Of a DNA stretch of 64,000 nucleotides, positions 59,201 to 64,000 are shown one piece after another. Each line of letters begins with the position of its first letter. Positions within the stretch are counted from its first letter, which is position 1. The DNA is from Escherichia coli (lineage in GTDB: Bacteria > Pseudomonadota > Gammaproteobacteria > Enterobacterales > Enterobacteriaceae). The position numbers were made by a program. The stretch is from the NCBI RefSeq assembly GCF_009931435.1, contig NZ_CP043414.1, one strand, 5' to 3'.

Positions 59201-62200
59201 CGATCTGGATTGGTTTAACTCGAGTACAATCATAATATTAACAATAGTGTCAATTATTTCTCTGATCTCTTTAGTAATTTGGGAGTCGACCTCAGAGAAC
59301 CCAATTCTTGACCTCAGTTTATTCAAGTCGCGTAATTTCACCATTGGTATTGTGTGTATCACATGCGCATATTTATTTTACTCTGGGGCGATTGTACTTA
59401 TGCCGCAGTTGCTGCAGGAAACTATGGGGTATAATGCGATATGGGCCGGGCTTGCCTATGCGCCAATCGGCATAATGCCACTATTAATATCGCCTTTAAT
59501 AGGACGTTATGGCAACAAAATTGATATGCGTGCATTGGTTACATTTAGTTTTTTGATGTATGCGGTTTGCTATTACTGGCGTTCTGTGACATTTATGCCA
59601 ACGATTGATTTCACAGGCATCATTTTGCCACAGTTTTTCCAGGGATTCGCCGTTGCCTGTTTCTTTTTACCCTTAACAACGATTTCGTTTTCAGGGTTGC
59701 CAGATAATAAATTTGCCAATGCCTCGAGTATGAGTAATTTTTTTCGTACCCTGTCAGGATCAGTTGGTACGTCGTTGACAATGACGTTGTGGGGACGACG
59801 CGAATCGTTACACCATAGTCAGTTGACAGCAACCATCGATCAATTTAACCCCGTGTTTAATTCATCATCACAAATTATGGATAAATACTATGGTTCGCTT
59901 TCAGGGGTTCTTAATGAAATTAATAATGAAATAACCCAGCAGTCACTTTCTATTTCTGCAAATGAGATTTTCCGTATGGCGGCTATTGCTTTTATCTTAC
60001 TTACAGTTTTAGTTTGGTTCGCGAGACCGCCGTTTACAGCGAAAGGCGTTGGGTGATGGTAAAAAGAGGAGGCTAGAGCAGGTAAGTCCGCGGAATTTTG
60101 AACCTGTACCATCATTTTATATGGATATTATCAGGCAGCATCGCTCACCCAGGGAAAGGATGGCGATGCTGCGGTGAAACGTTATTAACGGACTTTAGCC
60201 AGATATTGCTTCATCTCTTCTTCCGGCACCATTCCACCTCCTGTCGCCCACACCAGATGAGTGGCATTACGCAGTTGTTCTGTGCTGAAACCTTGCATCT
60301 GTTGGTAAATTACTGATGCGCACACGCGCTGAGGCCCGGCCATACCCGCCAGTGCTGAAGGCTCAAGACGAATGTCTTCTTCCTGCGCCAGCCAGCCAAG
60401 CATGTCATACATGGTTTGATCGCTAAGGGTATAGAAGCCATCCAGTAGACGCTCCATTGCCCGCCCGACAAAGCCTGATGCGCGACCAACTGCAAGGCCA
60501 TCCGCGGCGGTAAGGTTGTCGATACCAATATCCTGAACAGAAATCTGATCGTGTAATCCAGTATGGACGCCTAACAGCATACAAGGGGAGTGCGTGGGTT
60601 CGGCAAAAAAGCAGTGAACATGATCGCCAAACGCCAGTTTAAGCCCGAATGCGACGCCACCAGGACCACCGCCAACGCCACACGGCAGATAGACAAACAG
60701 AGGGTTATCAGCATCGACAATACGACCTTGCTCGGCAAATTGCGCTTTAAGACGCTGGCCTGCGACGGAATACCCAAGGAACAACGTGCGGGAATTCTCG
60801 TCATCAATAAAGAAACAGTTCGGGTCAGACTGCGCTGCTTTACGTCCTTCCTCGACGGCAACACCATAATCTTGCTCATATTCCACGACCGTAACGCCAT
60901 GGCTGCGCAGTTTCGCTTTTTTCCATGCCCGGGCATCAGCAGACATATGTACTGTCACCTTAAAGCCAATGCGGGCGCTCATAATACCGATTGATAACCC
61001 CAGATTTCCGGTTGAGCCCACAGCAATGCTGTATTGGCTAAAGAACTGCTTAAACTCCGGAGAAAGCAGTTTGCTGTAGTCATCTTCAAGCGTCAGCAAC
61101 CCTGCTTCCAGAGCCAGTTTTTCTGCATGTGCCAGGACTTCATAAATCCCGCCGCGTGCTTTTATGGAGCCGGAAATAGGCAAATGGCTATCTTTTTTCA
61201 GTAACAGTTGCCCGCTGATCGGTTGCTGATATTCCTTTTCCAGCCGTTTTTGCATAGCCGGAATCGCAACCAGTTCTGATTCAATAATCCCTCCAGTGGC
61301 AGCAGTTTCAGAAAATGCTTTTGCCAGATAAGGGGCAAAACGAGATAAGCGCGCATGGGCGTCCTGAACATCCTGTTCGGTCAGGCCAACATAAGGTAAA
61401 CCTTCAGCCAATAGAGTCGTGCCAGGATTAAACCAGGTGGTTTCTTTAAGAGCAACCAGATCCTTTACCAACGGATACTGGGCGATGAGCGAGTTCATTT
61501 TAGCGTTTTCCATAATATGTCTCTTTGCGCTTCGATGATAAATGACAGCAGGAATGTGCCCGCCAGAGCGACGACTGAAGCGATAAATGTCGCTGTCGTA
61601 TAGTATTTAAATGTTTCATTGAGCGCAGCGCCGCAATATTGCTTCACCAGCCAGAAAAGCGAGTCCGTAACGAACGTGCAGCCAATCGCAATAATTTCCG
61701 GGCTGATGTCTGGTTACAGCCACAGCACAATGATCCATATTTATATTTTTTCTCCGGGTGGGTGATGCCAGTCGGCATGATTTACCTACTTGTCTGCATG
61801 GTGACTCGTTGGCGAGAACAGAGGCGGAATTGGTTACAATTGTCCGGGAATTCTTGTTATTTTTTACTGTATTGTCGTGTCGGGTGATAGGACGTTGAGA
61901 ATATCGCTGGATCTCGCCAGTGACGTCTGTTTCTGCTACAGTGCCCGTTTTACGGCAAACGGCTTGGGTATGGCTTCATTAAAGGATGTCGCACGCCTGG
62001 CGGGAGTGTCGATGATGACTGTCTCCCGGGTGATGCATAATGCAGAATCTGTGCGTCCTGCAACGCGTGACCGCGTATTGCAGGCAATCCAAACCCTGAA
62101 TTATGTTCCTGATCTTTCCGCTCGTAAGATGCGCGCTCAGGGACGTAAGCCGTCGACTCTCGCCGTGCTGGCGCAGGATACTGCTACCACTCCTTTCTCT

Positions 62201-64000
62201 GTTGATATTCTGCTTGCCATTGAACAAACCGCCAGCGAGTTTGGCTGGAATAGTTTTTTAATCAATATTTTTTCTGAAGATGACGCTGCCCGCGCGGCAC
62301 GTCAGCTGCTTGCCCTCCGTCCGGATGGCATTATCTATACTACAATGGGACTGAGGCATATCACGCTGCCTGAGTCTCTGCATGGTGAAAATATTGTATT
62401 GGCGAACTGTGTGGCGGATGACCCAGCGTTACCCAGTTATATCCCTGATGATTACACTGCCCAATATGAAGCAACACAGCATTTGCTCGCGGCGGGCTAT
62501 CGTCAACCGTTATGCTTCTGGCTACCGGAAGGTGCATTGGCAACAGGGTATCGTCGGCAGGGATTTGAGCAGGCCTGGCGTGATGCTGGACGAGATCTGG
62601 CTGAGGTGAAACAATTTCACATGGCCATAGGTGATGATCACTACACCGATCTCGCAAGTATACTCAATGCCCACTTCCAGTCTGGAAAACCAGATTTTGA
62701 TGTTCTGATTTGTGGTAACGATCGCGCAGCCTTTGTTGCTTATCAGGTTCTTCTGGCGAAGGGGGTACGTATCCCGCAGGATGTCGCCGTAATGGGCTTT
62801 GATAATCTGGTTGGCGTCGGGCATCTGTTTTTACCGCCGCTGACCACAATTCAGCTTCCACATGACATTATCGGGCGGGAAGCTGCATTGCATATTATTG
62901 AAGGTCGTGAAGGGGGAAGGGTAACGCAGATCCCTTGCCCGCTGTTGATCCGTTGTTCCACCTGATATTATGTTACCCCAGTTGCCAGAGTGCTCCATGT
63001 TGCAGCACGGCCACTCCGTGGGCGGCATAGAGCGACAGTTCCCGTTCTTCTGGCTGCGGATAGATTCGGCTACTCATCACAGCTTCCCCGTCGTTAATAA
63101 ATACTTCCACGGATGATGTATCGATAAATATCCTTAGGGCGAGCGTGTCACGCTGCGGGAGGGGAATACTACGGTAACCATCTAAATTCTCGTGTGGGTA
63201 ATACCGCCACAAAACAAGTCGCTCAGATTGGTTATCAATATACAGCCGCATTCCCGTGCCGAGCTGTAATCCGTAATGTTCGGCATCGCTGTTCTTCAGA
63301 GCCCAGTGCAACTGAATCTCAACCGCTTGCGCGTTTTCCTGCAAAACATATTTGTTGCTGATTGTGTGGGGAGAGATTGATTGATGCTGCTGGCGTAACG
63401 ACTCAGCTTCGTGTACCGGGCGTTGTAGGAGTTTGCCATTGCTCTCTGATAGCTCGCGCGCCAGCGTCATGCAGCCTGCCCAGCCTTCACGTTTTGAGGG
63501 CATTGGCGATTCCCACATATCCATCCAGCCGATAACAATACGCCGACCATCCTTCGCTAAAAAGCTTTGTGGTGCATAAAAGTCATGCCCATTATCAAGT
63601 TCAGTAAAATGCCCGGATTGTGCAAAAAGTCGTCCTGGCGACCATATTCCGGGTATTACACCACTTTGAAAGCGATTTCGATAATTGTATCCCTCGGCAT
63701 TCATTCCCTGCGGGGAAAACATCAGATAATGTTGATCGCCAAGGCTGAAAAAGTCCGGACATTCCCACATATAGCTTTCACCCGCATCAGCGTGGGCCAG
63801 TACGCGATCGAAAGTCCATTCACGCAATGAACTGCCGCGATAAAGCAGGATCTGTCCCGTGTTGCCTGGGTCTTTCGCCCCGACTACCATCCACCAGGTG
63901 TCGGCTTCACGCCACACTTTAGGATCGCGGAAGTGCATGATTCCTTCTGGTGGAGTGAGGATCACACCTTGTTTCTCGAAATGAATACCATCCCGGCTGG

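Follow-up and report, generated by a model that had tools for sequence, protein, structure and literature searches.

In E. coli the csc and dsd genes are a textbook example of alternative, niche-linked gene content. Strains that carry dsdCXA are typically uropathogenic and can both detoxify D-serine and use it. Those with csc are typically diarrhoeagenic and belong to phylogroups B1, D, and E; their use of sucrose is slow, and D-serine inhibits them and, in addition, represses the LEE type 3 secretion system. In K-12, the DsdC-activated dsdXA promoter lies in the dsdC-dsdX intergenic region. O157:H7 EDL933 acquired cscBKAR, lost dsdC, and has a truncated dsdX and a silent dsdA (PMC7486766). 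In EHEC, deletions that remove cscR put dsdA under the cscA promoter and restore D-serine catabolism (PMC7486766). The same replacement of dsdCX by csc with lost D-serine use is described in PMC4366372 and in E. coli W (ATCC 9637; Archer et al. 2011, PMC3032704), where csc lies between the variable argW region and a truncated dsdX. The distribution of csc and its slow-sucrose phenotype were documented in PMC11251922: 23/29 csc+ scr- isolates grew slowly or very slowly on sucrose, and none was scored Suc+. A more distant likeness, which we compare by description as we do E. coli W, is the Citrobacter freundii csc locus (PMC11251922), whose csc proteins are homologous and whose CscR operators are conserved, but which has both cscA and cscR in inverted orientation and is sited away from dsdA.

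We analyzed a 64,000-nt stretch of an E. coli genome (contig NZ_CP043414.1), called the window here. The gene order at its right-hand end is emrY, dsdA, dsdX′, cscR, and cscA (Table 1), and the genotype is csc+ and dsdCX-. With high confidence we assign the locus to the argW-dsdCXA variable region of E. coli as its csc-type allele, the one seen in O157:H7 EDL933, E. coli W, and EC3132. The original prediction, that csc genes have replaced dsdC and dsdX at this variable locus, is borne out by alignment of the dsdX remnant, by a junction of the O157 type, by the closest relatives, and by the literature on EDL933 and W. The arrangement is already known and well described rather than new. The csc regulon that replaces dsdC and the dsdX 5′ part in O157:H7 EDL933 (z3622-z3626 region) and in other csc+ strains (O'Boyle et al. 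2020, PMC7486766; also Jahreis et al. 2002 and Moritz and Welch 2006, as cited in later papers) has the same gene order, the same dsdX′/csc junction, and an intact dsdA, with CscR and CscA proteins ∼97% identical to those encoded here. K-12 MG1655 and E. coli HS agree with the window in the emrKY-dsdA flank and over the final 218 nt of dsdX; between dsdA and the argW site they have a complete dsdX (445 aa) and a dsdC (311 aa), where the window has csc instead.

Table 1. Coordinates of the features at the dsdA-csc locus, as positions in the window.
Feature	Position	Strand	Description and evidence
emrY	58518..60056	+	conserved gene flanking dsdA on the side away from csc; order as in K-12, HS, and O157; ORF and annotation of collinear relatives
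dsdA	60185..61513	-	D-serine ammonia-lyase, intact, 442 aa; TIGR02035 match, PLP lysine, identity to HS/O157
72-codon open frame and stop	61495..61713	-	60 DsdX-derived codons, then 12 read-through codons; translation, NF007395, GntP_permease
all remaining dsdX-derived DNA	61531..61727	-	pseudogene, 197 bp; alignments, tblastn, annotated as an incomplete pseudogene in relatives
former dsdX stop	61531..61533	-	stop-loss, TAA to GAA; alignment, translation
single surviving CAATCGC copy	61683..61689		7-bp repeat; marks the 21-bp in-frame deletion (7 codons) inside the remnant; alignments
nonsense codon	61714..61716	-	Tyr378 TAT to TAA; limits the 72-codon frame on its upstream side; alignment, translation
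junction of dsdX-derived and csc-island DNA	61727..61728		position same as in O157
csc-island end upstream of cscR	61728..61969		non-coding, 242 bp; without K-12 or HS counterpart
cscR	61970..62965	+	LacI-family repressor of csc genes, intact, 331 aa; Pfam LacI and Peripla_BP_1, annotation in relatives
cscA	62973..64000	-	GH32 sucrose hydrolase (invertase), partial; 3′ 1028 bp, 341 of 477 codons, 5′ end beyond the window

The hydrophobic 72-codon frame next to dsdA had been read as a DsdX C-terminus, and the comparisons agree. Its residues 1-60 match positions 379-445 of 445 in the DsdX profile NF007395 (E = 2.8e-29; 102.5 bits, against a cut-off of 618), the frame matches positions 390-440 of 440 in Pfam GntP_permease, and alignment to the intact dsdX of HS and K-12 identifies the remnant as DsdX residues 374/375-445. 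A tblastn search with HS DsdX residues 374-445 matches the window at 61728-61534. The dsdX-derived DNA reaches five codons past the frame, which is cut by the nonsense codon; together with 21 deleted bases, its 197 bp account for the last 218 nt of the 1338-bp dsdX. A full-length, ∼445-aa multi-helix permease of the GntP/DsdX type is not encoded here, only the C-terminal part of the profile being matched, and that part has lost seven codons and carries a nonsense codon. The remnant is thus a pseudogene rather than a working member of the GntP/DsdX family.

The frame stop does overlap the dsdA start, as predicted: codons 61498-61713 are followed by a TGA at 61497-61495 that lies 18 nt inside dsdA. 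The last 12 codons, however, are not DsdX but read-through after the loss of the dsdX stop. That stop-loss is common to strain 2013C-4282 and absent from R32_14_1F, O157, HS, and K-12. K-12, HS, O157, and R32_14_1F keep the dsdX stop 17 nt before the dsdA ATG, and thus the overlap with dsdA is lineage-specific. As to the 21-bp deletion, O157 has two CAATCGC copies 14 bp apart, the first of which reads CAATTGC in HS; this sequence pattern fits replication slippage between the 7-bp repeats. A 60-mer spanning the deletion has matches in only 25/5426 complete E. coli genomes. The O157 remnant is also 72 codons long, which is a coincidence (72 - 5 - 7 + 12 = 72). We picture a decaying remnant to which this lineage would have added the slippage deletion, the nonsense codon, and the stop-loss. 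These three details are particular to the lineage; all fall in the dsdX remnant, O157 has none of them, and they look like pseudogene decay.

Homology to HS dsdX stops after 61727, and O157, 2013C-4282, and R32_14_1F are collinear across 61727/61728. Alignment to K-12 dsdX, the check proposed for locating the breakpoint, places it there and shows that the frame is related to dsdX; counted on the K-12 gene, 218 nt remain of the dsdX 3′ end. The 242-bp leader beyond the junction is 99.2% identical to close relatives and 90.9% identical to O157, has no K-12 match, and presumably holds the cscR promoter. The gap between the frame and the cscR ATG, given earlier as ∼250 bp, measures 256 bp (61714-61969). 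A promoter scan of 61400-63100 gave no enrichment, with one promoter-like site against 1.7 expected; this site overlaps the dsdA ATG and is uninformative. A terminator scan of the same interval found six terminator-like hairpins against 1.5 expected, most of them within coding sequence.

The csc genes that follow are as predicted, a cscR and a convergent cscA of the GH32 family that runs off the window; domains, coordinates, and identity to O157 all agree. CscR is full length, has the N-terminal LacI helix-turn-helix domain (PF00356, 76.6 bits, residues 3-48) and the sugar-binding core Peripla_BP_1 (PF00532, 298.4 bits, residues 61-329), is identical to O157 CscR at 321/331 aa, and is annotated as cscR or as LacI family in relatives. 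The cscA stop at 62973 lies 7 bp from that of cscR, and the frame is open to the window end with no internal stop. The partial CscA protein matches the N-terminal beta-propeller domain Glyco_hydro_32N (184.7 bits, profile 107-307) and the C-terminal beta-sandwich domain Glyco_hydro_32C (81.6 bits), and scores 307.6 bits against TIGR01322 scrB_fam, for which the cut-off of 356 applies to full-length proteins. It is identical to CscA of O157 at 334/341 aa and to that of R32_14_1F at 341/341 aa. The catalytic motifs RDP (HFRDPKVW) and EC (acid/base; MWECPDF) are seen in the translation; the motif of the nucleophile Asp (WMNDPNG) falls in the 136 N-terminal codons beyond the window.

The window ends within cscA, and what we say of cscK and cscB, of the far junction, and of dsdC being absent draws on relatives 98-99% identical to it. 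In the closest complete genomes, R32_14_1F and 2013C-4282 (98-99% identical), cscA is followed by cscK and cscB, neither flagged as a pseudogene, and then by torI, a degraded intS, and argW. The csc block in the relatives ends at a pawZ/attR remnant next to the argW prophage site. Past cscB, these relatives carry a degraded CPS-53-like remnant (torI, intS′), where O157 has other prophage genes. In one relative, we found no direct or inverted repeats bounding the csc block that would be a sign of site-specific insertion or transposition. The only notable repeats there are TGTTAACGTTAAC palindromes between cscA and cscK, beyond the end of the window, which probably correspond to the inverted-repeat operators of CscR described by Jahreis et al. 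2002, as cited in later papers.

The proposed absence of a permease and of the DsdC activator holds for the place upstream of dsdA, where alignment shows dsdX cut down and its 5′ part missing together with the dsdC-dsdX intergenic region, so that the DsdC-dependent region and the cognate permease are both lost. No DsdC match above 26% identity was found in the window. Absence of dsdC from the genome as a whole goes further than a window can show. A rival reading is a genome with both systems, in which csc sits here, a complete dsdCXA or a retained dsdC sits elsewhere, and D-serine use is uncompromised. Retention of dsdC alongside csc occurs sometimes or often, and a few strains have both loci complete (PMC11251922); second dsdCXA copies in K1 strains are attributed to Moritz and Welch 2006, as that work is cited in PMC7486766. 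We regard this arrangement as improbable for the strain. An intact dsdX or dsdC immediately beyond the csc genes was looked for in the two closest complete genomes, and between cscB and argW neither R32_14_1F nor 2013C-4282 has a DsdX or DsdC homologue, the best DsdC match being an unrelated LysR protein at 35% identity. Moreover, 2013C-4282 has a single place genome-wide that matches the dsdA-csc query, and only one that matches dsdA. A stray dsdC would still meet a dsdA whose upstream dsdC-dsdX intergenic region has been deleted.

Frequencies across the species bear on the same point. The dsdA-dsdX′-cscR-cscA arrangement occurs in 2660/5426 complete E. coli genomes, about half, O157 included, and dsdC with the dsdX 5′ part occurs in 2770 of the 5426. 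The two counts sum to 5430, nearly the number of genomes, so the two states are almost either/or and co-occurrence is rare; the sum exceeds 5426, and at least a few genomes therefore carry both. A separate consideration is that the region shares only 95-96% identity with most E. coli, as might be seen in a cryptic Escherichia clade. We ruled this out, as across a housekeeping stretch (4000-12000) identity rises to 97.7-98.2% with typical E. coli and to 99.4% with one strain; the low identity is local, with emrKY at ∼94.5%.

Returning to the csc-type allele with a decayed dsdX, we considered whether the 72-codon frame might instead encode a small membrane protein that still works, or serve as a leader with translational coupling to dsdA, with the stop-loss raising dsdA translation. 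The frame has 72 open codons, is hydrophobic, and overlaps the dsdA start by 18 nt, and the dsdA promoter that O'Boyle et al. placed 115 bp upstream of the ATG lies inside the remnant (PMC7486766). Yet the first in-frame start is a GTG that would give only 50 aa, the promoter scan found no more than chance would supply, and in every relative the annotation calls the segment a pseudogene. The frame's defining features also vary among close relatives, R32_14_1F having the original stop and O157 lacking both the nonsense codon and the deletion, which is the pattern of neutral decay and not of conservation. A functional role for the frame appears highly improbable. That the abutment of dsdA and csc is an assembly artefact or a strain-private rearrangement is refuted, for nothing speaks for it except that the window ends inside cscA, whereas the same junction is found in one collinear piece in 2660 complete genomes, O157 included.

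The csc-type allele, then, would have arisen when a ∼5.6-kb block with cscR, cscA, cscK, and cscB replaced ∼2.4 kb of ancestral DNA. Gone with that DNA would be dsdC, the intergenic region between dsdC and dsdX, and ∼1120 bp from the start of dsdX, so that only ∼218 nt of the dsdX 3′ end are left beside an intact dsdA. Intactness of dsdA had been predicted, and the product matches TIGR02035 over its full length (profile 1-431 of 431; 804 bits, cut-off 368) and retains the PLP-binding lysine K118 in the motif SGSIKARGG. The protein is identical to DsdA of HS at 432/442 aa and to that of O157 at 434/442 aa, and dsdA DNA is 96.8% identical to K-12. In the resulting layout, cscA and dsdA share a strand, and cscR, which lies between the two, is on the other.

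By analogy with the experiments on EDL933 and W, dsdA would be expressed at a low level only, and the strain would be unable to grow on D-serine and sensitive to it. The earlier claim that D-serine use is compromised is sound to the extent that the same replacement goes with lost D-serine use in EDL933 and W (PMC7486766, PMC4366372, PMC3032704); for the present strain we infer it from those cases. Judged from the sequence, dsdA expression might differ from that in EDL933, given a leader ∼9% divergent from O157 and an altered dsdX′-dsdA boundary. In particular, the stop-loss frame ending 18 nt inside dsdA could couple translation of the remnant to that of dsdA or alter the structure of the ribosome-binding region, and the "silent" dsdA would then be expressed unlike that of EDL933, though we give this little credence. 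If true, a csc+ strain would naturally have regained part of its D-serine detoxification, or have silenced it still more.

For sucrose, the literature leads us to expect uptake by CscB, hydrolysis by the GH32 enzyme CscA, and phosphorylation of the fructose by CscK, under repression by CscR, with cscK and cscB lying beyond the window. The usual outcome of a csc system would be slow growth on sucrose. The strain had been called sucrose-positive; the csc genes are indeed present, but the term is too strong, as csc without scr mostly gives slow growth (PMC11251922) and two of the genes lie outside the window. E. coli W grows well at >1% sucrose (PMC3938415), which should not be assumed for this strain.

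The lesions in the dsdX remnant are useful at most as phylogenetic markers, and the locus raises no new question. For the organism itself, the csc+ dsdCX- genotype leads to a prediction of D-serine sensitivity together with slow sucrose use.

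Reading of the six-frame ORF list and the raw window sequence confirms the gene layout described at the dsdA/csc locus by the original prediction, which held that the csc genes for sucrose use replace dsdC and dsdX beside an intact dsdA. The 442-aa dsdA product is a complete D-serine ammonia-lyase, scoring 804 bits over the whole TIGR02035 profile, and a 72-codon frame, closed by a TGA at 61495-61497, overlaps the dsdA start at 61513. The ~250 bp predicted to follow measures 256 bp, beyond which lie cscR and a convergent cscA that leaves the window. In profile searches the similarity of the 72-aa frame is confined to the far C-terminal end of DsdX (NF007395 379-445 of 445; Pfam GntP_permease 390-440 of 440), the LacI HTH and Peripla_BP_1 domains of the 331-aa protein identify it as a LacI-family repressor, and the cscA frame carries Glyco_hydro_32N (profile 107-307) and Glyco_hydro_32C. 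These GH32 domains agree with CscA being an invertase or hydrolase, as it is usually described; PMC11251922 labels it a sucrose phosphorylase.

Features of the dsd/csc locus, its emr flank and the xap region in the window
Feature	Coordinates	Strand	Remark
Tsx/OmpK-like channel	13985-14752	-	
extra nucleoside:H+ symporter	15009-16262	+	
309-aa protein	16317-17246	+	nucleoside 2-deoxyribosyltransferase domain
emrK	57355-58518	+	
emrY	58518-60056	+	
dsdA, 442-codon ORF	60185-61513	-	TIGR02035
72-codon open frame	61498-61713	-	stop at 61495-61497
gap between 72-codon frame and cscR	61714-61969		256 bp
cscR, 331-codon ORF	61970-62965	+	LacI-family
cscA, partial, frame open to window end	62973-64000	-	GH32 domains

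To locate the breakpoint, we aligned the window with the two closest complete E. coli relatives, R32_14_1F and 2013C-4282, with an O157 strain and with HS, whose dsdCXA is intact. Starting from the dsdA side, the window is homologous to intact dsdX as far as base 61727 and no further, which, taken with the NF007395 match, bears out the assignment of the 72-codon frame to the dsdX C-terminus. Past 61727 and into cscR, the O157 strain and both relatives stay collinear with the window, which means that the window and O157 share this junction. In K-12 coordinates, the piece kept covers the final 218 nt of dsdX, equivalent to DsdX residues 374/375-445. The 242-bp noncoding end of the csc island 5' of cscR (61728-61969) is 90.9% identical to O157, compared with about 97% for the adjoining cscR and cscA coding regions.

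The region past the window was viewed by proxy in R32_14_1F (99.3% identity over window 55321-64000) and 2013C-4282 (98.1% over 48100-64000). In both, a complete cscA (477 aa) is followed by divergent cscK and cscB, annotated generically as riboside kinase and oligosaccharide MFS transporter, then by torI, a few small genes, and a PACE transporter with its LysR regulator, and further on by a degraded intS, tRNA-Arg (argW) and yfdC. Comparison with K-12 shows the csc block extending as far as the pawZ/attR remnant of the argW prophage site, with ~5.6 kb of csc DNA in place of ~2.4 kb of dsdC-dsdX DNA; homology between the relatives and O157 also stops at this remnant, beyond which lies different prophage material. 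A search of R32_14_1F found no repeats flanking the csc block. In tblastn with HS queries, no DsdC or DsdX homologue was found between the csc genes and argW of the relatives, the sole match being the unrelated PACE-associated LysR regulator (35% identity). The 2013C-4282 genome has a single place matching a dsdA-containing query and thus no second dsd copy there. These results support the predicted replacement with two qualifications: sucrose use is probably slow (discussed below), and the absence of dsdC from the source genome is something we infer from the relatives rather than see directly. Separately, the cscA-cscK intergenic region of R32_14_1F (L005 9109-9199, outside the window) holds two TGTTAACGTTAAC palindromes 64 bp apart, probably the two inverted-repeat CscR operators of Jahreis et al. 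2002, as cited for that region in PMC11251922.

A query with window 60100-64000, requiring one collinear place and a coverage of at least 80%, finds the dsdA-dsdX'-cscR-cscA arrangement in 2660 of 5426 complete E. coli genomes, dsdX' being the surviving 3' piece. Where the arrangement is missing, this query mostly matches only as far as the dsdX remnant, and most such genomes have a full dsdX annotated at that place. HS dsdC plus the 5' five-sixths of dsdX matches 2770 of the same genomes. The two counts total 5430 against 5426: almost all E. coli are in one of the two states, and genomes with both are few.

The arrangement, its junction, the argW hot-spot setting, the population frequency and the phenotypic consequences have already been described; three small lesions of this sub-lineage's remnant are the only features of which we found no mention. 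Alignment and translation reveal them relative to O157, HS and K-12. A 21-bp in-frame deletion leaves a single copy of CAATCGC (61683-61689), a 7-bp repeat of which the O157 remnant has two copies 14 bp apart; it removes seven codons, about DsdX 388-394, in a pattern typical of replication slippage. A nonsense codon (TAT to TAA, 61714-61716) is the reason the open frame begins only at 61713. The dsdX stop, which in K-12, HS, O157 and R32_14_1F precedes the dsdA ATG by 17 nt, is lost at 61531-61533 (TAA to GAA), so that 12 extra codons are read to a TGA 18 nt inside dsdA and the remnant frame overlaps the dsdA start. All three changes occur in 2013C-4282, R32_14_1F has the deletion and nonsense codon without the stop-loss, and a 60-mer across the deletion matches 25 of the 5426 genomes. 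The remnant looks like a decaying pseudogene with disabling changes scattered among close relatives, and neutral decay is the simplest reading of the three lesions; the least ordinary reading, in which translational coupling created by the stop-loss changes how dsdA is translated, we consider highly improbable.

Elsewhere in the window, emrKY (57355-60056) is only ~94.5% identical to K-12 and O157, and the housekeeping stretch 4000-12000 (ptsI-cysK-zipA-ligA) reaches 97.7-98.2% identity with typical E. coli. The closest relative changes by segment: R32_14_1F leads in emrY (99.9% vs 97.1% for 2013C-4282) and 2013C-4282 in dsdA (99.1% vs 97.8%). The low emrKY identity and these swaps in rank make the dsd/csc flank look like a recombination mosaic. 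The yfeN-xapABR neighborhood at 13806-20589 is replaced by a divergent version, which shares only 77-78% identity with the genes usual in E. coli and also includes xapA, xapB and a LysR regulator; yfeR, annotated in 2013C-4282, is not among its genes. Goat strain R32_14_1F matches this stretch at 100% identity, IAI39 and CE10 at about 99.1%, and only 15 of 5426 complete genomes have it at full length; this rare nucleoside-salvage variant is more unusual than the csc/dsd finding. Downstream lies a tRNA cluster (Lys and three Val, 20589-21030), beside which 2013C-4282 has an annotated RtT sRNA where collinearity with the window resumes; this cluster and two tRNA-Ala genes near yfeC (about 23727-23923) are the same in other E. 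coli.

The functional picture comes from experiments published on strains other than this one. EDL933 carries the same replacement: with the activator DsdC gone and DsdX truncated, it lacks a working D-serine system and D-serine is toxic to it (PMC7486766; PMC4366372). In E. coli W, the ability to use D-serine has been lost from the same cause (PMC3032704). Compromised D-serine use is likewise predicted for the source strain. O'Boyle et al. reported weak dsdA expression in the csc context and showed that deletions removing cscR switch dsdA back on: the cscA promoter, no longer repressed, drives read-through into dsdA, which has the same orientation as cscA (PMC7486766). The window has the EDL933 geometry, in which cscR, a plus-strand gene, separates cscA from dsdA, both on the minus strand. 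Sucrose use is expected, as predicted, at a slower rate than the label sucrose-positive implies: among 29 csc+ scr- isolates, none grew fast on sucrose, 23 were slow or very slow and five did not grow (PMC11251922). Since such isolates are mostly slow, the source strain is probably a slow sucrose user.
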